NCBI RefSeq assembly: GCF_002945325.1
Contig: NZ_CP026606.1
Span: forward strand, 600,001-632,000
Direction: 5' to 3'
Length of the DNA: 32,000 nt
DNA from: Methanococcus maripaludis
GTDB taxonomy: Archaea; AGJL01; Methanococci; Methanococcales; Methanococcaceae
Shown piece by piece: positions 1,763 to 31,825 of the stretch. Each line of letters starts with the position of its first letter. Position 1 is the stretch's first letter. Under the pieces are notes generated by a model. The model ran no database searches. It saw only the letters and a list, made by a program, of their open reading frames with translations, and had not been told where the DNA came from. The translations under genes and the position numbers were made by a program.

Positions 1763-4441
1763 TTATTTATTTAAAATCTGAATTATTTTTTCCGTAATTT
1801 GTTCCTTATTTTCAGAATATTTTCCTTGTGCGAGGTTATCTTTTCCACCGCCTTTTCCAATATTTCTGATTAAGTCTTTCATACTTATTTCAACGTTTTC
1901 TCCTCTTTTACATAAGAGGTAGTCGTTTTCATTCATTAGAACTATGAGTTTGTTTCCAACTGCTAAGTTGTCTGCAATCGACATTAATTCGTTTGGAGTT
2001 CCGTTGACCTGTTCAACTAAAACTTCGTAATTTCCAACATTCTCAAATTTGTCTGCAAGTTCGTATTTTACGAGTTCACCGACTTTTTTCTGGAGTTCTT
2101 CAATCGTTTTTTTCTGTTCTTTCCATTCTTCAAAGAATCTTTTAACAGTTTTTGGAAGCTGGTCATTTGGAATTCCTAAAATTTCAGCTGAATCAATTAA
2201 GGTATCTTCAAGACTCGCAATTTCTGAAACTGAACCCATTCCTGTTGAATATTCAAGTCTTTCAACACCATCCTGAATTCTTTCGGTCTTTAAAACTTTA
2301 ATGTATCCCACTTCTGAAGTGTTGCTGCAGTGAGTTCCACCACATGCTTCAACGTCAGTTCCTTCGATTTCGATTATTCTTAAAGTATCTCCCGGAACTA
2401 CACCACCCTGGTAGATTGTAAAGCCGTATTTTTGTTCCGCATCGTTTCTATCCATAAAAGTTGAGTTTACAGGCATTTTTGAAAGAACAATTTCGTTTGC
2501 AATTCTTTCAATTTCTTTTACCTGTTCTCTTGAAATTCTCTCGTAGTGGGTGATATCAAGTCTTCCTTTTTCAGTATCAACGTTTGAACCGGTCTGCCAT
2601 ACGTGTTTTCCAAGAACCCTTGTTGCTGCTGCATTTATTACGTGCGTTGCAGTGTGGTTTCTCATTAATTTAAGCCTGTTATCCCAGTTTACGGCACCTT
2701 TTACTGTGTCGCCTTCTTTGAATTTTGAAATGTCAGAAACTTTGTGGAATACAATTCCATTCTTTTTCTGTACGTCAATAACTTCAATATCATTTAACTG
2801 ACCAATATCGTACTTTTGACCCCCGCCTTCAGCGTAGAAAAGGGTTTTGTCTAGTACAATATATTTTTCAGCGATTTTCAAGATTTTAGCTTCAAATTCA
2901 ACTTGCGTTGGGTGTTTGAAGAATAAAAGTTCGGTTTCAGAAACTTCAAGTTCAGGAAGTTCTTTTTTCGTTGAAACTACTTCTTCAGGTTTTTCTTCCT
3001 CGTGTCTTTCTGCAACAATCGTGTAGAAATTGTCAGGAACTGTAATTGCAATAGTTTTCTTTCCTTTTTTGTTTAATTCATCAACTACATCTTTTACAAT
3101 TTCAGGAGGAAGCCCGTTACTGTCATATAATTCGATTAAATCGTCAAGCGTGATTTCTGACTTTGAAGCAGCCATTCTTTCAACGATTCCTCTTCCACGG
3201 TTTACAGTTTGAATGTATTTTTTCTCTTCAGAATCCAAAACATCCATTATGTATTCTTTCATGCCACTTAATTCAGGGTAAATTTCTTTCATGTTTTCAA
3301 GCTGCATTGAAATGATATCTTTTATGGACATTGAGATTCCGATTTTTTCCATGTATCTTAATGTCTTTCTGAGTACCAATCTTGCAAGGTAACCTTCTTT
3401 TACGTTTGAAGGTACAATTCCATCTCCAAACATGAAAGAAAGACATCTTGTGTGGTCAGCAATCGCATAGATGTATTCAAGCGGGCTTATTAATTTATCA
3501 AGCTCATCTACATCCATTCCGATTTTTTCAGCAACTTTTTGCCTTAAAACTCTTAAATCACCGACATTTTCAATATCCATAAGTCCGGCGAGAGTTGCAC
3601 TCTCAGCCATTATTTTTTCATCGACTTCTGGAATTCCCGCATCTTCTTTTAATTTTTCAATTATTTCTGAAAATAAAGATTCGTAAACTGTTGGAGTTCC
3701 TTGGGAAGCCCATGCAAATCTTTCGATTCCGTATCCTGTATCAACAATTTTCAAAGGAATTTCTTCGTAATCGTTTCCAATTTTCTTATACTGCATGAAA
3801 ACAAGTGTTGCAAGCTCAACACCGTGCGTTATAACTTCGTAGCAGGGTCCAGCGTTTCCTCCACCTTCCCACCAGCTTTCGATAAAGGTAATTGTTTTTC
3901 CGTCAATTCCAAGTCTTTTCATTAATTCAAAACAGTATTCAACAGTTTTATCTGTCCAGTACTTGTAGTCGTCTTTTGAATTGAATGCGTGGTGTGCACC
4001 CATTGTAAAGCATGTTAGGTGTCTTCCAGTTCTTCCAACATTATCAATATCGTTAAGCCTGATACATGGCTGTGCAATTACTAACGGATTTTTTACAGGT
4101 TTTACAAGCCCACTTGTAACCCATGGTTGAAATACTGCAATCGATGCAATAGTTAAAAGAATATCGTCTCTCCATCTTTTTGCAACTACGGGAGATCTTT
4201 TTACAGGGGTGTGTCCCTTTTCGTCGAAAAAGTTCGTAAATTCCTTAACCATTTCGTTGTAGGTGTATTTTTTACTGGTGATAGGGTTTCCAATAAATGA
4301 ATACTCATCACACGGACTATCTCCACAAGTAGTCCTGTCTTTATCAAGTGTCCAAAACCATTGGTTACACTCAGTACACTGTTTTCTTTCAAAACCTAAT
4401 TCATCAAAAAGTTTTACTCTATAATCGTGATTAATCTCCAT
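1763..4441 (-). CDS. alaS: Alanyl-tRNA synthetase
   Basis: The ORF has the archaeal AlaRS layout: an N-terminal Zn-binding CTEC..C motif, the catalytic core, an editing domain with HTATH and CGGTH, and a C-terminal DHHA1-like tail. I prefer ATG 4441 ([12 protein letters not shown]), preceded by GGTGG, over the track start at 4462. Confidence 0.95.
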
Positions 4442-9410: not shown

Positions 9411-10559
9411 ATGAAACAGATGGATACTGAAAAACTGTTAATGATTCCGGGCCCTACAATGGTTCCAAGCAGGGTTTTAAACACCATGGCGTTACCAATT
9501 ATTGGTCACAGGACTTCAGACTTTGGAGATTTAACTGGCGATACCGTAGACATGATGAAAAAAGTATTCCAGACTGAAAATGATACATACATCATAACCG
9601 GTTCAGGAACTGCTGTAATGGATATGGCTATTTCAAATACCTTGGATAAAGGCGACAAAGTAATAAACATTACAAACGGAAACTTTGGAGAAAGATTCTA
9701 CAAAATTTCATCAGTTTACAAGGCAGACACGATAAAATACGAACCTGAATGGGGAGATTTAGCAGATCCTAAAAAATTAAGAGAATTACTCGAAGAAAAC
9801 GAGGGAATAAAAGCAGTAACTGTTGTTCACAACGAAACATCAACAGGTGCTAAAAACCCAATCGAAGACTTAGGAAAAGTTGTAAAAGATTTTGATTCAA
9901 TCTACATCGTAGATACAATCTCATCACTTGGTGGAGATTACGTAAATGTAGACAAATTCAACATCGATATCTGTGTTACGGGTTCACAAAAATGTATTGC
10001 TGCACCACCAGGACTTGCTGCAATTACCGTGGGTGAAAAAGCATGGGATGTTGTTTCAAAAACGGAAACTAAATCATTCTATTTAGATTTAAACGCATAC
10101 AAAAAATCATGGGATGCTAAAAAAGAAACCCCTTACACACCATCTGTTTCATTAACTTACGCAATGAATGAAGCTCTTGAAATGGTGCTTGAAGAAGGGC
10201 TTGAAAACAGATTTAAAAGACACGATTTACTTGCTAGAGCTACAAGAGCAGGTTTAGAAGCTATGGGACTTGAATTATTTGCAAAAGAAAGAGCAAGATC
10301 AGTTACAGTTACCTCAGCAAAATACCCTGAAGGAATTGACGACAAAAAATTCAGAGGACTCCTTGCAGAAAAATACGACATAAGAGTTGCTGGCGGACAG
10401 TCACACCTTGCTGGAAAAATATTCAGAGTTGGACACATGGGTTCAGCTAAAGAATACCAGGTTTTAGGAACCTTAGCAGCTATCGAACTTGCATTTAAAG
10501 AATTGGGCTACAATGCAGAAGGCGGAGTTGCTGCTGCAAAAAAAGTTCTATCAAATTAA
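9411..10559 (+). CDS. Class V PLP aminotransferase (serine-glyoxylate / aspartate / phosphoserine aminotransferase group, MJ0959-like)
   Basis: 382 aa. LMIPGPT N-terminus, HNETSTG, and the TGSQKC PLP-lysine motif. GAGGGAT RBS is present. Confidence 0.85.
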   Translation: MKQMDTEKLLMIPGPTMVPSRVLNTMALPIIGHRTSDFGDLTGDTVDMMKKVFQTENDTYIITGSGTAVMDMAISNTLDKGDKVINITNGNFGERFYKISSVYKADTIKYEPEWGDLADPKKLRELLEENEGIKAVTVVHNETSTGAKNPIEDLGKVVKDFDSIYIVDTISSLGGDYVNVDKFNIDICVTGSQKCIAAPPGLAAITVGEKAWDVVSKTETKSFYLDLNAYKKSWDAKKETPYTPSVSLTYAMNEALEMVLEEGLENRFKRHDLLARATRAGLEAMGLELFAKERARSVTVTSAKYPEGIDDKKFRGLLAEKYDIRVAGGQSHLAGKIFRVGHMGSAKEYQVLGTLAAIELAFKELGYNAEGGVAAAKKVLSN

Positions 10560-15180: not shown

Positions 15181-15259
15181 AGCGAGGTAGGGTAGCCAGG
15201 CCTATCCCGCCGGGCTCATAACCCGGAGATCAGAAGTTCAAATCTTCTCCTCGCTACCA
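15181..15259 (+). tRNA. Initiator tRNA-Met (CAT), copy 1, CCA encoded
   Basis: Cloverleaf read by eye: acceptor AGCGAGG/CCTCGCT with an A1:U72 pair, anticodon stem CCGGG/CCCGG (three consecutive G:C pairs) around CTCATAA, T-arm AGAAG-TTCAAAT-CTTCT, and a terminal ACCA followed by a T-run. Confidence 0.9.
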
Positions 15260-15358: not shown

Positions 15359-15437
15359 AGCGAGGTAGGGTAGCCAGGCCTATCCCGCCGGGCTCATAAC
15401 CCGGAGATCAGAAGTTCAAATCTTCTCCTCGCTACCA
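15359..15437 (+). tRNA. Initiator tRNA-Met (CAT), copy 2, identical to copy 1
   Basis: 79/79 nt identical to 15181-15259. It also shares the TTGA 5' flank and the T-run 3' flank. Confidence 0.9.
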
Positions 15438-26174: not shown

Positions 26175-26286
26175 TCTTTAGGGACACTCCATGTGAATAA
26201 TTGTGGTCGTGTGGGGCATATTCTTAAATTGTGGTTGGGGAACCTGAAAGTTATATGCCCCTCGAAAACGACTGGCTTTTTTGTAT
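26175..26286 (+). ncRNA. Candidate small structured RNA of unknown class
   Basis: TTAAATATATA box at 26146-26156. A 9-bp perfect long-range stem GGGGCATAT (26213-26221) / ATATGCCCC (26253-26261) encloses the hairpin GGTT-GGGG-AACC (26233-26244). A T6 run lies at 26277-26282. The segment is locally G-rich and has no ORF. Confidence 0.3.
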
Positions 26287-26683
26287 TGATTTAAAAAATT
26301 TAAAAGAATCTTTTAAATAGTGTCAAAATAACTATTTTTAACGAAATTAACGAAATTCAGTAAAAAAATAGATAAAAAAGCATTCTAAAGTTTTTTATAA
26401 ACTTAATTAATAAAAGTTTTGGGGTTGACATATCATTATTGATATGATTAAATATAACTTAAAGTAATAGATGTACTAGAAATGGCTCGATGATGATTGT
26501 CATCACAAGAAATATATATTAAATCTATATATGTTTCGAGGTAATTTATCATCGTTAACATCCCGATTTTTAAAAAATTAAGTTCCTTATTTTGACGATT
26601 AAAGAGCGGAAAACGCTTATTTTTTTAGACGATTTTTAGACGAATAAAACGACTATTTTTAAGATTTATGTAAAAAACGATTA
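26267..26683 (+). repeat. Iteron-like array of ACGA-core motifs
   Basis: AACGACT 26267-73; perfect tandem TAACGAAAT x2 at 26339-56; inverted copy ATCGTTA 26551-57; GACGATT 26594-600; TTTAGACGA at 26624-32 and 26635-43 (11-bp phasing); AAACGACTA 26647-55; AAAACGATTA 26675-83. Confidence 0.45.
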
Positions 26684-26689
26684 ATCTAT

Positions 26690-27195
26690 GGTTATTCATT
26701 TTGGCGAGTTTCTAAGTTGTACGTGGATTTCCCACCCCAACACCTTGATTACTATTATAAGTCCTGACGGAGCAGGCGAACTTACCAAAGGGTATACGCC
26801 AAACCCCTCTTACAGGGGTTTGGCTACCGCCAAGATAGGGGCTAACGCCCATGAAAAGTGCCTTTGGGCAGATTGATTTTATCGGAGTTATGAATTGCTA
26901 ACGCAATTCATTCAATTAGGCTTACGTTAAGCTACTTCGGACACCTGGTCCGATTGCTTTCGCAGGTCGCGACCTGCTCAGACGTTTCTCGAACCGCCAA
27001 GATTGATTTTATTTTTTAGAGTGTAGGCAGTTCTCCGGAACGCCACGCAATCTATAAATTTAAACACGTCAAGCCCATGGCTTATATACCCTTTCGGGTA
27101 TAAATCGCCGGGGCGATAGTTAGAGCTTAGAGCTTATTGATTAATGACCCTTCGGGTCGGGATTCCAAAAAGAAGAATAATTCACCGTTTTTAAT
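26690..27195. ncRNA. GC-rich hairpin-dense island: candidate large or multi-part structured RNA, or ssDNA-structure element; class unknown
   Basis: GC is 33/60 at 26761-26820 and 35/60 at 26941-27000, against 11/60 at 26341-26400 (my counts). There are at least 12 near-perfect stem-loops, T-run terminators at 27007-17 and 27188-92, and no credible ORF. Confidence 0.4.
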
Positions 27196-27202
27196 AGTTA
27201 AA

Positions 27203-27229
27203 TTTATATAGTATAACTACTATATAGTA
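27203..27229 (+). promoter_or_regulatory. Promoter with a TATA-containing repeat/operator for the polyvalent-protein operon
   Basis: TTTATATA lies at 27203-27210. TATATAGTA occurs at 27205-13 and 27221-29. The first copy forms a perfect 9-bp inverted repeat with TACTATATA at 27218-26. GGTGG RBS is at 27253-57, and the ATG is at 27263. Confidence 0.45.
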
Positions 27230-27262
27230 GCTTATACAGAAGGTAACAAAACGGTGGTAGAA

Positions 27263-29320
27263 ATGGTTAAAAAATCAGTTAAAGATATTATAACGGAAAA
27301 AATTATAAATAGATTAGAATCCGGCGATATTCCTTGGATTAAACCGTGGGGCTTTACTCCATCAGTAAATTATGTAACAGGTAAAGAGTACACCGGAATA
27401 AATAGAGTTTCTTTGGAGAAAGGGGGTGAATATTTAACATTTAAACAGATTGATGAATTAGGCGGAAAAGTCAAAAAAGGAAGTAAAGCGGAAAAAGTAG
27501 TATTTTATAAAGAATATGAAAAAATCGAAAGAGATCCCGATGACCCCGATTTAATGAACATAAAAGACACTTTCGCTTTAAGATATTATAATGTGTTTCA
27601 TATATCCGATGTCGAAGGAATAAGAAGTAAACTTCCAGAAATGCCAGAAATAAAACATAATCCAATAAAAAATGCTGAAGAAATAATAAATAATTATGAA
27701 ATCCCAGTAAATGAAATAGAACTCCGAAAAAGGGCAACATATGACCCGATAACGGATAAAATAGAAGTTCCAACAAGAAACCAATTTAAAAAAATAGAAG
27801 GTTTTTATGGAACTGCATTTCATGAAATCGGACACAGTACAGGACATGAAACAAGATTAAACCGCCCCGAATTAATAAAACCGTGTGCATTTGGTAGTAA
27901 AAACTATTCAAAAGAAGAACTGACCGCAGAAATAACCGCATCATTTTTAAATAATCATTGTGGGATCTTTGAAAATAATATTGAAAACAACGCCGGATAT
28001 ATACAAAGTTGGATAAAAGCATTAAAAAATGATAATAATATGATCCTTTACGCATCAGCAAAAGCGGAAAAAGCTTTAAATTATGTTTTGGAAAGTGTAG
28101 AAAAGAATAAATCAAAAATAACCGAAACAATAACAGAAATTAAAACAGTTAAAAAAGTTCAGGCGGATTTATTAGATTTTATTAAAAATCAACCTGAAAC
28201 CCCTTCTTTTAAACCTGAAATAAAACCGGAACCAATAAAAGAAGAAGCAAAGAGAATTAATTTAAAAGCTGCGAAAAGTTTGGAAGCAAAAGCGGAAAGC
28301 CTGAATAAAAAAATTGAAAAAAAATTAAGTTGCTTTGCAAATTGCAACATGACGAGAAGACGTGCAAACTTTAGAGAAAGTGCGAGAATTGATGCAGAAA
28401 ATTTAAAAAAAGTACAAAGTGTTTTATTTAATTTAGCAAAACTCCACAGAAGCGGAGAAATTAAAAAAGAAGTTGAAAATATAAATGCAGTTTCACAAGT
28501 TGAAATATTATTATGCGAACACGTCAAATATAAAACTCCAAACGATATTGAGCCCGATTATGGGGAATGGGCAAAAGAAGAGATTTTAAAAAGATTTAAA
28601 ATGTTTAATAAATTAAATATTCATTCTCAGAACGATTTAAACGAAACAAGGGAAATTTTAAAAAGTTTAATTCTTGAAGAAAGCCAGGACGAAAAAACAA
28701 AAAGAGAACTTCAAAAACTGGAAGATAATTTGATCGGTTTAAAAATTCCTGGATTTTTCCCAACTCCCAAAGAAATTATAAAAGATATGATCGATAAGGC
28801 AGAAATAAAAGAGAATGATTCTATCCTTGAACCCTCCGCAGGAAAGGGAGATATTGCAGAAGTAATAAACGAAGAAACCGGAATAAAAGCCGATTGTATC
28901 GAAATAAATCCAACATTACAAACAATATTAAATAAAAAAGGTTTTGAAACAGTAGAAAGTAATTTTTTAGAATTTAATGGTAAATATGATAAAATTATAA
29001 TGAATCCACCTTTTGAAAAAGGTCAAGATATAGAACACGTAACCCACGCATACAATTTATTAAACAATGGCGGAAAGCTTGTTTCGATTATGTCAAATTC
29101 AGTAACATTTAGAAATGATAAAAAATATATGGAATTTAGAGAATTTTTAAAAGAAAATAACGGATATATTGAAGAACTTCCAGAAGGATCTTTTAAAAAA
29201 TCCTTCAACAGCACAGGAGTTAAAACTATAATGGTAGTTATTGAAAAAAACTACCCTTCATCAAATTTTTCTTTAGCCACAGCCCCGACACCACACCACT
29301 CAAGAAAAATGTATGTTTAA
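27263..29320 (+). CDS. Polyvalent fusion protein: ArdC-N (DUF1738) ssDNA-binding domain + ArdC-type HExxH metallopeptidase + helical linker + N6-adenine (NPPF) DNA methyltransferase
   Basis: The N-terminus (ITEKIINRLESGDIPWIKPW...TGKEYTGINRVSL...YLTFKQIDELGGKVKKG...YYNVFHISDVEG) matches ArdC-N. FHEIGHSTGHETRLNR...YSKEELTAEI matches the ArdC C-terminal metallopeptidase. The C-terminus has FFPTP, motif I ILEPSAGKGDI and motif IV IIMNPPF. ATG 27263 is preferred over GTG 27254. Confidence 0.8.
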   Translation: MVKKSVKDIITEKIINRLESGDIPWIKPWGFTPSVNYVTGKEYTGINRVSLEKGGEYLTFKQIDELGGKVKKGSKAEKVVFYKEYEKIERDPDDPDLMNIKDTFALRYYNVFHISDVEGIRSKLPEMPEIKHNPIKNAEEIINNYEIPVNEIELRKRATYDPITDKIEVPTRNQFKKIEGFYGTAFHEIGHSTGHETRLNRPELIKPCAFGSKNYSKEELTAEITASFLNNHCGIFENNIENNAGYIQSWIKALKNDNNMILYASAKAEKALNYVLESVEKNKSKITETITEIKTVKKVQADLLDFIKNQPETPSFKPEIKPEPIKEEAKRINLKAAKSLEAKAESLNKKIEKKLSCFANCNMTRRRANFRESARIDAENLKKVQSVLFNLAKLHRSGEIKKEVENINAVSQVEILLCEHVKYKTPNDIEPDYGEWAKEEILKRFKMFNKLNIHSQNDLNETREILKSLILEESQDEKTKRELQKLEDNLIGLKIPGFFPTPKEIIKDMIDKAEIKENDSILEPSAGKGDIAEVINEETGIKADCIEINPTLQTILNKKGFETVESNFLEFNGKYDKIIMNPPFEKGQDIEHVTHAYNLLNNGGKLVSIMSNSVTFRNDKKYMEFREFLKENNGYIEELPEGSFKKSFNSTGVKTIMVVIEKNYPSSNFSLATAPTPHHSRKMYV

Positions 29321-29334
29321 ATTAAAGTGATAAT

Positions 29335-29553
29335 ATGAAACCAAGCGAAAAAGAAGTTTTTGAATTATTTTTAGTAAATCAAATAGTTACTGCACCAATT
29401 GCAGAATTATTGACTGGACGAAACATTACAACTTGTAAACGGGCATTATTGGAACTTAAAGAAATGGATTTGATAACTTTAGCACAAAGAAAAGCAGGAT
29501 ATTATATTCCAACTGAAAAAGGGGAAGGTGAATTGAAAAAAATTGAATTATAA
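29335..29553 (+). CDS. Small winged-helix-type DNA-binding protein (putative element regulator)
   Basis: 72 aa. It starts 14 nt after the polyvalent gene, with an AGTGAT RBS. The HTH-like segment is IAELLTGRNITTCKRALLELKEMDLI, followed by a beta-wing-like AGYYIPTEKG. Confidence 0.5.
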   Translation: MKPSEKEVFELFLVNQIVTAPIAELLTGRNITTCKRALLELKEMDLITLAQRKAGYYIPTEKGEGELKKIEL

Positions 29554-29764: not shown

Positions 29765-31825
29765 TTATTTTTTAGAAAATTTAATTTTTCCCATTTTGGA
29801 AGATACTTTTTTAGCACCAGATTTCATGCTTTTCAAATCAATATCTCCACCAAACACAACTACTACACCAGCTAAAACGATTAAGATTCCTAACCAGTTA
29901 TCAGTTATTACAGCAGGGATTAAATCCCCTGAAATTGCACCGATTAAACCAAAATCAGAACCAGAGTTAGCTTCTTCTGTTGTGGATGCTAAAGTTAAAG
30001 CCTGATCGTCAAGTCCATAGTAATAAAGTTCTGCAATTTGGACCCAGTCCTTGGCTTGTGATTCATAATACCATGCTTTATTTTTTCCCTCTATAATTGA
30101 ATCCGTATTAGTTAAAGAAATAGCAGTTAACGAATCAATTGCCTTTTGGTAGTAATCAATAGCTTTTTGGTAAGCATTTTCCGAGTCCGTGTCATCTGCA
30201 AAATCTCTGTTACTTTCAAGTTCTGCAATTTTTGACAGATAGTCCGCTACATCCCCCTCAAACATTGCCTCTGTTTGTTCTTTTTCTGATGCGGTGAAAT
30301 CCCCATCTGCAAGGAAACTATCTATCAATTTTGAGTGGTCTGTAATTACGAAAACATAATTTGACCTAATTGTTATTCGAGGCTTTGAAATAGCCCATAC
30401 TGGAAAAGACCTATCAGGATTATCTTCGGTTTGATATATTCTTCCTGAAACTAAAAGGAATGGATATATAGCGACTGTATCCTCATCTGAGTTATAGTCG
30501 AGGATCGTGTTAATTACTCCAACCTTTGTAAGGTCCGGTAAAATTCCATCTGATTTTGAATCTGTTGAAATTGTTGAAGTTCCATCTGCATGATAATTAA
30601 TTGCAACTAATCTGTAAGATACATTTTGAATTTTCATATCAGTTGAATAAGTATCAAAATATTCAGGATAACCGATAATAGTTACAGAATACCCGGCAGG
30701 ATTGTTTAATTCATGAATCATCGAGGATTTAATAGTCATAACAATGTTTGAAGTAGCACCGTTTGCATCGGCCTTAAAAGCAAACATTTCGTCATCGTAT
30801 TGATCCCTATATTCAGAACCTAAACCGCCCTCTTTTCCTTTGTGGTCCACGATTCCATCAAGGATTGATTGAGTAGCAGATGTTGTATGCCTATATGAAA
30901 TGTAAGATGTGTTCTTCCAGGGGTCATCTTTTCCATCATCGTCATCATCCCATCTAAGAGGCTTATCTTCTTCTTCCTCAGGGGTATGTTCCTCTAAATC
31001 CCATCGGGCCCACTCTGCGTTTTCTTTCCAAACGACTAAATTATGGTTAACTTCGGTGTATATTTCAAAATTTTCTACATCCGCAGTAACAAGAGCGTTT
31101 AAATCATTTAAATCTAAATTTCCGCCCTGAGTCATAACAGCGACTTCCGATGCGTAATCATCAGGAACTTTTAAGATTGCATCAAAAGTATGTTCCTGGT
31201 TTTCAGAAGTAATATTCAAATCAGTTAGTTCATATTTGGATACAACAGTTCCCCCTTGCATAACTTTAAAAGTTACTGAATTTATCTCAGTATGGCCGAT
31301 AACATCTATTGTATATTGATCGTCCCCATAATCGATAACATCTTCGGGGAACATTGAATCTATTGAAGGAGTTTTCACAGTTATTCTAACTGGAAAGACT
31401 GAAAAACCACCTATTTTATCAGGGGCGTTAATTACTTCTTGAACCAATCCCCCAACTTCATATCCTACACAATAATAAGAAACCATATCAGATTTTATCT
31501 CATCTAAAATCCTTTGTGTGGAGTTTGAGGCTTCGATAATTGATTGTTCCTTATCCCCCATTACCGCCTCGGCAGAGGATTGCTCGGTTTCGTTTTGTGT
31601 TCCATTAAACACAATATCTGAGGGCGTATCATCTGTTGTGTTACTTGGCGGTAAATCAACAGTATTTCCACCAGTTAACCAGTCCCATATATCAGTAAAT
31701 AAAGTTCCGGTTCCAGTTCCACCGCCATCATCTATTCCCACATATCCGGTTCCATCCGCAAATACTGAAAATGGAGAAATTAAGACCAGAAAAAGGATAA
31801 ATAAAGATTTAGTTTGTAGCTTCAT
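29765..31825 (-). CDS. Large secreted, C-terminally membrane-anchored surface protein (probable glycoprotein), family unknown
   Basis: Signal peptide MKLQTKSLFILFLVLISPFSVFA. There are many N-x-S/T sequons, an acidic DDDDDGKDD patch, and a YQKAID tandem repeat. The TM segment WLGILIVLAGVVVVFGG is followed by a Lys-rich tail. Confidence 0.75.
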   Translation of the reverse strand: MKLQTKSLFILFLVLISPFSVFADGTGYVGIDDGGGTGTGTLFTDIWDWLTGGNTVDLPPSNTTDDTPSDIVFNGTQNETEQSSAEAVMGDKEQSIIEASNSTQRILDEIKSDMVSYYCVGYEVGGLVQEVINAPDKIGGFSVFPVRITVKTPSIDSMFPEDVIDYGDDQYTIDVIGHTEINSVTFKVMQGGTVVSKYELTDLNITSENQEHTFDAILKVPDDYASEVAVMTQGGNLDLNDLNALVTADVENFEIYTEVNHNLVVWKENAEWARWDLEEHTPEEEEDKPLRWDDDDDGKDDPWKNTSYISYRHTTSATQSILDGIVDHKGKEGGLGSEYRDQYDDEMFAFKADANGATSNIVMTIKSSMIHELNNPAGYSVTIIGYPEYFDTYSTDMKIQNVSYRLVAINYHADGTSTISTDSKSDGILPDLTKVGVINTILDYNSDEDTVAIYPFLLVSGRIYQTEDNPDRSFPVWAISKPRITIRSNYVFVITDHSKLIDSFLADGDFTASEKEQTEAMFEGDVADYLSKIAELESNRDFADDTDSENAYQKAIDYYQKAIDSLTAISLTNTDSIIEGKNKAWYYESQAKDWVQIAELYYYGLDDQALTLASTTEEANSGSDFGLIGAISGDLIPAVITDNWLGILIVLAGVVVVFGGDIDLKSMKSGAKKVSSKMGKIKFSKK

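Follow-up and report, generated by a model that had tools for sequence, protein, structure and literature searches.

Orphan leading-region methylases protect entering DNA (PMC11541004, PMC7736820), and M.EcoGIX and M.BceJIII, which methylate the single strand promiscuously as it enters (N6-methyladenine, m6A), protect pESBL in a manner that depends on orientation (PMC7736820). A DarB-type dyad, in which a methylase is combined with a SWI2/SNF2 ATPase and an LPD36 domain, is common in polyvalent proteins (Iyer et al. 2017, PMC5512222). On the Bacillus plasmid pLS20, the EGeRS1 region, about 600 bp of non-coding DNA with many inverted repeats, lies upstream of ardC (PMC8708921). In Archaea, ArdC-like genes are reported to be conserved core genes of haloarchaeal plasmids of the pHdsl9-3 family that carry a type IV secretion system (T4SS) (PMC13532300), and for the pT26-2 family spread via a novel DNA/protein transfer apparatus or via vesicles has been proposed, neither of which has been shown experimentally (PMC6972569). 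An integrative element of Methanococcus maripaludis JJ has been classed as "pT26-2-like", its relatives in Mic1c10 and X1 lacking five of the seven core genes (PMC12667266). The present analysis concerns the first gene at the left edge of this element, MMJJ_06640, in which an ArdC half is fused to a DNA methylase unit, together with a structured non-coding block upstream of it. The window is the whole stretch of 32,000 nucleotides that was analysed (NCBI RefSeq assembly GCF_002945325.1, contig NZ_CP026606.1, positions 600,001 to 632,000 of the forward strand), and all coordinates without another label refer to it.

The open reading frame (ORF) lies on the forward strand and ends at 29320, with a possible start at a GTG (27254) or at an ATG (27263). 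The ATG sits 4-6 nt past a Shine-Dalgarno sequence, GGTGGT (27253-27258), and yields the 685 residues of the public annotation P0001 (100% identity), so that the coding sequence is given as 27263..29320. Because both protospacers printed for the JJ genes MMJJ_06640 and MMJJ_06660 (PMC12667266 supplement) are found exactly in the window, the fusion gene is MMJJ_06640 of M. maripaludis JJ. An initial annotation, made from the sequence without database searches, had described a single polypeptide of 685 residues with an ArdC-N domain, an HExxH peptidase and a methyltransferase, which was borne out by Pfam and PHROGs; the motifs HEIGH, FFPTP, EPSAGKG and NPPF are all present, at residues 187, 498, 523 and 581, and the searches against Pfam, PHROGs, PDB, PADLOC and Foldseek recovered ArdC_N, the PolyVal peptidase and an N6-adenine DNA methylase.

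The first half comprises an ArdC-N domain, binding single-stranded DNA (ssDNA), at residues 6-112 (27278..27598, forward strand; Pfam PF08401 ArdcN, E 4.5e-20), which aligns with 6SNA/6I89, and an ArdC-type gluzincin peptidase (MPTase-PolyVal) at residues 137-266 (27671..28060, forward strand; Pfam PF18818, E 4.6e-33), and an anti-restriction family of PHROGs matches residues 2-292. Residues 8-279 align to residues 11-288 of R388 ArdC (6SNA/6I89) with an E-value of 2.4e-28. With the residue roles taken from the work on R388 ArdC (PMC7213743), H187-E188-x-x-H191 (nt 27821-27835) corresponds to H201/E202/H205, E218/E219 (nt 27914-27919) to E228/E229, and Y246 to Y255. The peptidase motifs are kept in all four lineages in which the element was compared (JJ, C5, L007 and L009). 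Since the metal-binding and catalytic residues of R388 ArdC are all conserved, the ArdC half looks complete and is predicted to be catalytically competent. The AlphaFold model of this half was of low confidence, with a predicted local distance difference test (pLDDT) score of 31-73, probably owing to a poor mixed alignment, and this half of the model was set aside.

Between the peptidase and the methyltransferase motifs, the initial annotation had placed a helical linker of roughly 220 residues. This proved wrong, as the region consists of a variable spacer of about 60 residues and a conserved helical N-domain of about 150 residues that belongs to the methylase unit. The sole true linker is the Lys/Glu/Pro-rich spacer at residues 283-345 (28109..28297, forward strand), recognised by its variability and indels; it is the least conserved region in close copies, with 71% identity between JJ and L009, indels and a ratio of nonsynonymous to synonymous substitution rates (dN/dS) of 0.58, and the AlphaFold 2 confidence is low across it. 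The helical N-domain at residues 346-495 (28298..28747, forward strand) is under stronger constraint than any other part of the protein; it is 93-95% identical from lineage to lineage, has a dN/dS of about 0.1 and is covered by the bacterial homologues and by a stand-alone methyltransferase of Gloeothece. In the AlphaFold model, residues ~330-665 form one compact unit (pLDDT 90-98).

The methyltransferase core itself spans residues 496-665 (28748..29257, forward strand) and was identified as gamma-class N6-adenine through Pfam, PHROGs, PDB, PADLOC and Foldseek. Its motifs FFPTP at residue 498 (nt 28754-28768), EPSAGKG at 523 (28829-28849) and NPPF at 581 (29003-29014) follow the order X-I-IV which, with NPPF, is that of the gamma class, and the N-terminal motif is of the TPxxxxxM type. 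The DNA-methyltransferase modules of very large phage proteins in PHROGs match residues 432-664 with E-values down to 5e-73, Pfam MTS matches residues 561-635 with 27.6 bits, just over its cutoff of 23, and the core aligns weakly to residues 19-122 of M.TaqI. By Foldseek, M.TaqI, M.BseCI and CamA superpose at a root-mean-square deviation (rmsd) of 3.3-4 A over ~200 columns; the best neighbours of solved structure are the HsdM subunits of type I systems, with 350-400 aligned columns but an rmsd of 13-16 A, and Pfam HsdM_N has no match in the 685-residue protein. A target-recognition domain is absent, the core ending at about residue 665, 20 residues before the stop. The C5 and L007 orthologues stop right at the methylase core; JJ and L009 bear a C-terminal tail of 20 residues (…YPSSNFSLATAPTPHHSRKMYV; residues 666-685, window 29258-29317) that C5 and L007 do not have. 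From its sequence and its structural model, the C-terminal half is predicted to be an orphan, HsdM-like gamma-class N6-adenine DNA methyltransferase without a target-recognition domain.

The three-module design recurs in Bacteria. In an exhaustive HMMER search, which covered 1.84 billion representatives, an 830-residue protein of Aureibacter tunicatorum (P0246, WP_309941383.1) matches residues 4-670 continuously at 38% identity, and P0251 and P0248 likewise carry ArdcN, MPTase and methyltransferase modules. A search with residues 283-685 found about 1,900 proteins with ~80-90% of the query covered, among which some carry LPD domains of polyvalent proteins and one is a fusion of ArdC-N with the methylase; the named homologues of the methylase unit are all bacterial (Deinococcus, Bacillus, Bacteroidota and others). 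Judged by its domains, the design is rare and is the bacterial polyvalent-protein design described by Iyer et al. (PMC5512222). The archaeal protein likewise combines at least two unrelated effector domains among its three modules, is headed by ArdC-N with the MPTase behind it, and stands in a mobile-element setting. A SWI2/SNF2 helicase or an LPD domain was not found in the 685-residue protein with Pfam and PHROGs, so that it is not of the DarB type.

Both halves also occur apart on plasmids. A tblastn search with the methylase module matched 5,000 plasmid records or more, among which 3,861 are predicted to be conjugative. The matches on enterobacterial plasmids cover the catalytic core alone at ~36% identity and belong to a small "class I SAM-dependent methyltransferase" (SAM, S-adenosylmethionine); in the one IncF plasmid inspected, this gene of 187 codons lies between an antirestriction gene and ssb/parB in the leading region, its product being similar to the core to the extent given but without the helical N-domain. 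On plasmid Cy782203 of the cyanobacterium Gloeothece verrucosa PCC 7822, typed as MOBP/MPF_T conjugative, the 347-residue methylase WP_013325573.1 matches residues ~319-663 (37% identity, E 3e-69), and the next gene, WP_013325572.1, encodes a full ArdC (34% identity, E 9e-50). The Gloeothece pair thus has the same two halves, but as separate genes, in the opposite order with the methylase first, and in a cyanobacterial host. Because these genes are adjacent, the archaeal protein can be read as a Rosetta-stone fusion of a bacterial gene pair. The polyvalent-protein reading of the initial annotation was right in this respect, the same architecture being found in bacteria and the halves being neighbours on a conjugative plasmid.

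The surroundings of the Gloeothece genes (L016, 5905-10089) hold, in order, the methylase, ArdC, a hypothetical protein, a winged-helix regulator and a second small SAM-methyltransferase, with a primase-polymerase and ParA next to them. The arrangement has the look of a compact "establishment" cassette of bacteria that parallels the archaeal fusion.

In phages, the methylase unit is embedded in the 2,715-residue protein NVP1211A_14 of Vibrio phage 1.211.A, with 44% identity over 72% of the C-terminal query. Cellulophaga phi17:2 gp136 was considered as a full-length structural match and rejected, as only the methylase unit is shared and the ArdC half is missing. For each half, the closest relatives occur in mobile settings, namely a tailed-prophage-like contig and a phage-like early-gene cluster with Dam. 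The DUF2080 family is mostly archaeal. In one metagenome sequence (L015, P0123), the methylase unit has a close relative within a phage-like cluster of early genes that also holds a tyrosine integrase, Dam and one more methyltransferase, and a faint match to DUF2080; this may be an archaeal virus or provirus.

Within Methanococcus, full-length copies were found by a word-indexed search in four protein clusters only, three of which are named M. maripaludis; the fourth, P0002, is a read-assembly sequence with 94% identity and the same element context. Species-representative genome contigs scanned with the full protein gave no relative. All modules are under purifying selection, with dN/dS values of 0.05-0.58 for every module and all motifs kept in the four lineages. 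Between JJ and C5 or L007, the ArdC half is 56-60% identical and the methylase half 81-93%, and against L009 each of the two JJ halves shows 95-98% identity and the upstream block is highly diverged. This mosaic divergence suggests that modules have been exchanged independently, or that the ArdC part evolves faster.

The chromosomal homology of JJ and C5 stops near 26315, and homology across all four element lineages begins at ~26577-26590, so that, counted from the left edge, the fusion gene comes first in the element; it holds this position in all four contexts. The genes upstream are ordinary chromosomal genes, encoding an S-layer protein, ABCE1, PolB, an amidohydrolase, a PHP protein and a Pab1020-type RNA ligase. 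The fusion gene always adjoins a T26-6p-like gene cluster, and it does so at three chromosomal loci: the RNA-ligase locus (JJ and C5, with differing immediate flanks), the ilvC locus and a Fe-S/CCG gene cluster. In JJ, the T26-6p-like gene MMJJ_06660 (29765..31825, reverse strand; Pfam PF22265, PF22092 and PF20984) encodes a membrane protein of 686 residues and is a marker of pT26-2-type elements. The element is also targeted by clustered regularly interspaced short palindromic repeat (CRISPR) spacers of other strains: spacers Mic1c10 #106 and OS7 #115 match, with one mismatch, a protospacer at 28182..28216 on the forward strand (PMC12667266 supplement, Fig. S7D), which falls within the variable spacer region of the fusion gene, and the T26-6p-like gene holds a further protospacer (31269-31303), an exact match to the one printed for MMJJ_06660. 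The occurrence at three chromosomal loci and the spacers in other strains point to recent mobility. Taken with the restriction to four clusters, they also set the gene apart from a conserved housekeeping gene, the case in which the initial annotation would have failed.

The best explanation is that the fusion is probably an anti-restriction "establishment" protein of this pT26-2-like integrative element. Domain homology, conserved catalytic residues, purifying selection, the mobile context, CRISPR targeting and the bacterial linkage of the two halves all point this way; the anti-defence module seen by the initial annotation is thereby supported, with an anti-restriction function that we infer from homology. 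In the mechanism we propose, the DNA of the element would enter a new cell, and the protein would be made early from its own promoter or be carried in with the DNA. The ArdC-N domain would tether the protein to the incoming element DNA, which is possibly single-stranded, and the tethered methylase would deposit m6A with low sequence specificity, so that host restriction enzymes would no longer cut the element; broad deposition is proposed because the methylase is without a target-recognition domain. Direct shielding of the DNA by the ArdC part, known from R388 ArdC, may contribute as well, and the peptidase may split the two halves at the flexible spacer, in line with what Iyer et al. proposed in general (PMC5512222), or act against a host factor. 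That DNA is the substrate, that the protein acts early, that the element gains by evading restriction, and any proteolysis are inferred. Restriction does hinder the entry of DNA into M. maripaludis, given that treatment with PstI methylase lifts transformation at least four-fold (PMC4902934).

Several observations weigh against this explanation. The peptidase activity of R388 ArdC is dispensable for the sole phenotype measured (PMC7213743), and the element of C5 has been listed as a "remnant, no detectable limits" (Badel et al., PMC6972569). Walker A and Pfam searches of the 10 kb that follow on the right turned up neither a VirB4/HerA-type ATPase, such as the t26-14p protein among the seven pT26-2 core genes, nor any other transfer gene. 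Several of the profiles matched by the core are those of methyltransferases for RNA or protein (MTS, RrnaAD, HemK-like), and the top PADLOC match, mad2 (E 5e-19, residues 445-663), is a methylase of a defence system. The promoter of the fusion gene is an ordinary archaeal promoter of the double-stranded DNA type, which gives no indication of early or ssDNA-dependent expression. The hint of a DNA-transfer lifestyle in the initial annotation, for its part, was not new, as a transfer apparatus had already been hypothesised for the pT26-2 family (PMC6972569).

The mad2 match bears on a first alternative, in which the methylase would be the modification arm of a defence or addiction system borne by the element, similar to restriction-modification or MADS systems, and would mark the genomes of host and element as self. 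Mad2 being part of MADS, the match fits this, as does a fold closest to the HsdM subunits of type I systems, and cyanobacterial homologues are automatically annotated as type I subunit M. However, a nuclease, HsdS, HsdR and the other MADS components are absent beside the gene in all four contexts, no other match to the defence library was obtained in the two neighbours tested, and the neighbours are membrane proteins of the element. The methylase is, moreover, covalently fused to ArdC, an anti-restriction protein, and its relatives are found next to genes for anti-restriction and ssb in the leading region of a plasmid and within polyvalent proteins of phages, so that a role in defence or addiction appears very unlikely.

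The gene could instead be a leftover in a decaying, immobile element, with no current role in transfer, or the host could have taken it over, for instance in epigenetic regulation. The listing of the C5 element as a remnant speaks for this, and no integrase, ATPase or att site is identifiable in the element sequence analysed. Nevertheless, purifying selection acts on all modules, the motifs are intact in four diverged lineages, and the element occupies three chromosomal loci and is targeted by spacers of other strains, as expected upon recent mobility; a relic or a co-opted gene is accordingly hard to credit. Least probable of all is that RNA or protein, and not DNA, is the substrate of the C-terminal module, for which Pfam and NCBIfam matches to the MTS, RrnaAD, HemK2/MTQ2-like and Erm families, one NCBI record that names the protein "predicted RNA methylase" and the missing target-recognition domain could be cited, but the family matches are counted as far below the cutoffs (the score of Pfam MTS itself being the one given above), the N-terminal TPxxxxxM and NPPF are typical of gamma-class N6-adenine DNA methylases, the longest structural alignments are those to DNA methylases, and members of the family are annotated as DNA methylases and embedded as such in anti-restriction contexts of phages and plasmids.

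Upstream of the fusion gene, and preceding its own promoter, lies a conserved, GC-rich and hairpin-rich non-coding block of ~560 nt at the left end of the element (26590..27165, no strand assigned), which was delimited by alignment, covariation and folding and whose structured part covers ~26758-27157. It is 78-80% identical in nucleotide sequence to the C5 and L007 copies and hence more alike than the 5' end of the gene, which is 67-72% identical to the same two. The fusion proteins of L009 and JJ share 94% identity, yet for L009 BLAST aligns just 144 nt of the block; the helices are nevertheless kept. In the four-way alignment, 94.6% of cells are paired, and compensated pairs number 13, compared to 5.1 +/- 1.6 in shuffles (none of 500 reached 13) and at most 4 in slid registers. 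The compensated pairs cluster in two hairpins, of 10 bp (26798-26807/26815-26824) and of 12 bp, and in a long-range helix (26952-26957/27047-27052). The JJ block also folds far better than its shuffles, with z-scores of -6.1 and -5.5 as RNA of either strand and of -7.3 as ssDNA. Support for a conserved structure is moderate, as it comes from four sequences and the structure was drawn from the same alignment. The asymmetry of G-U versus A-C pairs gave no functional strand call, both strands folding equally well.

Attempts to relate the block to known sequences gave negative results throughout. There was no match in Rfam at gathering thresholds or at E<=10, no tRNA was found in the block, and blastn against plasmid and phage records returned no similar DNA. 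A pattern scan for the invariant hairpin GGCTTATATACCC[N]TTCGGGTAT found none in species-representative genome contigs or in viral contigs; its single metagenome match (L011) lies on a GC-rich bacterial contig and was discarded as a chance match. A covariance model of the 3' domain recovered just the four training copies, and no further copy is present in the element sequence analysed, which leaves one copy per element. An ORF of 62 codons inside the block (26688-26876) was rejected as coding, its frame being broken between lineages by a 5-nt indel in a hairpin loop and by other length changes that are not multiples of three.

Downstream of the block, the fusion gene has a BRE-like sequence (transcription factor B recognition element), AGTTAAA (27196-27202), followed by a TATA box, TTTATATA (27203-27210), together at 27196..27210 on the forward strand. 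Both were read from the sequence and are taken by us to be the promoter on the Methanococcus consensus; from the position of the TATA box, transcription of the gene is predicted to start near 27235. The TATA box is unchanged in all four lineages, and the bases directly upstream of it vary in C5 and L007 (alignment A1). In L009, an insertion of ~160 nt (L009 ~9716-9880, A1 columns ~1040-1200) separates the block from the promoter and contains a further hairpin of the CCCTTCGGGG type; the promoter there is nearly identical to that of JJ.

By analogy, the block and the ArdC-methylase gene might together be an archaeal counterpart of a leading region, in which a control or priming element that folds as a single strand, similar to Frpo, EGeRS1 or a rolling-circle single-strand origin, would be followed by establishment genes. 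We regard this as unlikely. If it were true, pT26-2-like elements would enter Methanococcus as ssDNA via an unrecognised conjugation-like apparatus. Less radically, the block could be a new large structured non-coding RNA specific to pT26-2-like elements. It is the least explained item of the locus and a testable candidate for a new regulatory RNA or ssDNA element.

The remaining features of the region are more ordinary. An ORF of 72 codons (29335..29553, forward strand) begins 14 nt past the fusion gene, is possibly co-transcribed with it and is also called in the L009 lineage; Pfam, PHROG and PDB searches found no relatives of it, and it is unrelated by sequence to the small ORF at the same position in C5. 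Its designation as a winged-helix regulator was dropped, as Pfam, PHROG and PDB gave no support. The genes further to the right mostly encode predicted membrane proteins without Pfam matches. The insertion comprises ~40 kb, its right end lying beyond the region analysed, and neither a tRNA nor an att site was found at the left edge. Between the chromosomal flank and the start of the four-lineage homology, a segment common to JJ and C5 only (26486-26545; CTCGATGATGATTGTCATCACAAG…TCGAG) contains an inverted repeat and a C-box-like ATGATGA without a D box, with a sub-threshold match to the C/D-box sRNA sR55 (13.6 bits). Directly downstream of the RNA-ligase gene, a GC-rich stretch at 26195-26290 ends in a T-run (…ggtcgtgtggggcat…gccccTCGAAAACGACTGGCTTTTTT); it lies in the chromosomal flank kept in C5 (26018-26314, 84% identity), has sub-threshold Rfam matches only, and could be a small RNA or a terminator structure. 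Further upstream, two tRNA-Met (CAT) genes on the forward strand (15181-15259 and 15359-15437; Rfam, 61.9 bits each), 100 nt apart, look like a tandem duplicate.

As to novelty, MMJJ_06640 had already been called ArdC in a supplement of 2025, with the methyltransferase not mentioned (PMC12667266), and the main text of Badel et al. (2019) mentions neither ArdC nor methylases (PMC6972569). The novelty implied by the initial annotation is therefore overstated, as the pT26-2-like element group, the ArdC identity of this gene and the ArdC-like genes of archaeal T4SS plasmids have all been published. What is added, as far as domain content can tell, is one more protein, from an archaeon, with a polyvalent design already known in bacteria. 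If read correctly, it would mean that "establishment" modules of bacteria have passed into mobile elements of Archaea, it would be circumstantial evidence that pT26-2-like elements face host restriction on entry, possibly as ssDNA, and the protein would be a candidate promiscuous DNA methylase of an archaeal element that could be used to improve methanogen genetics.

Among the known systems, the ArdC of the IncW plasmids R388/pSa has the same ArdC-N domain and gluzincin peptidase, with all metal-binding and catalytic residues shared. Unlike it, the archaeal protein has ~400 additional residues, the spacer and the DNA methylase unit, and it is encoded in an integrative element without a recognisable relaxase or T4SS. 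The orphan methylases M.EcoGIX and M.BceJIII belong to the beta class with a DPPY motif (PMC7736820), whereas the present one is of the gamma class with NPPF, which makes them functional analogues and not homologues. For the upstream block, EGeRS1 of pLS20 offers the closest analogy, being likewise non-coding, rich in inverted repeats, located directly upstream of ardC and predicted to fold as ssDNA or RNA. However, there is no sequence similarity between the two, EGeRS1 recurs five times on pLS20 while the archaeal block is single-copy in the sequence analysed, and the TATA box downstream of the block belongs to the archaeal gene, in difference from the arrangement on pLS20.

The haloarchaeal pHdsl9-3 family resembles the present case in that an ArdC-like gene on an archaeal element is tied to a presumed transfer apparatus, a likeness by description only; it differs in the archaeal order, in its T4SS cluster, which is not seen here, and in that no methylase fusion has been reported for it. 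Giant, injected phage methylase proteins of the P1 DarB type share the methylase unit, their PHROG profiles extending over 2,800-3,400 positions, but are far larger, carry a helicase and other modules and are associated with the virion. The Aureibacter protein has the same three modules in the same order, and differs from the archaeal fusion in its bacterial host, its greater length and an N-terminal extension of 60 residues.

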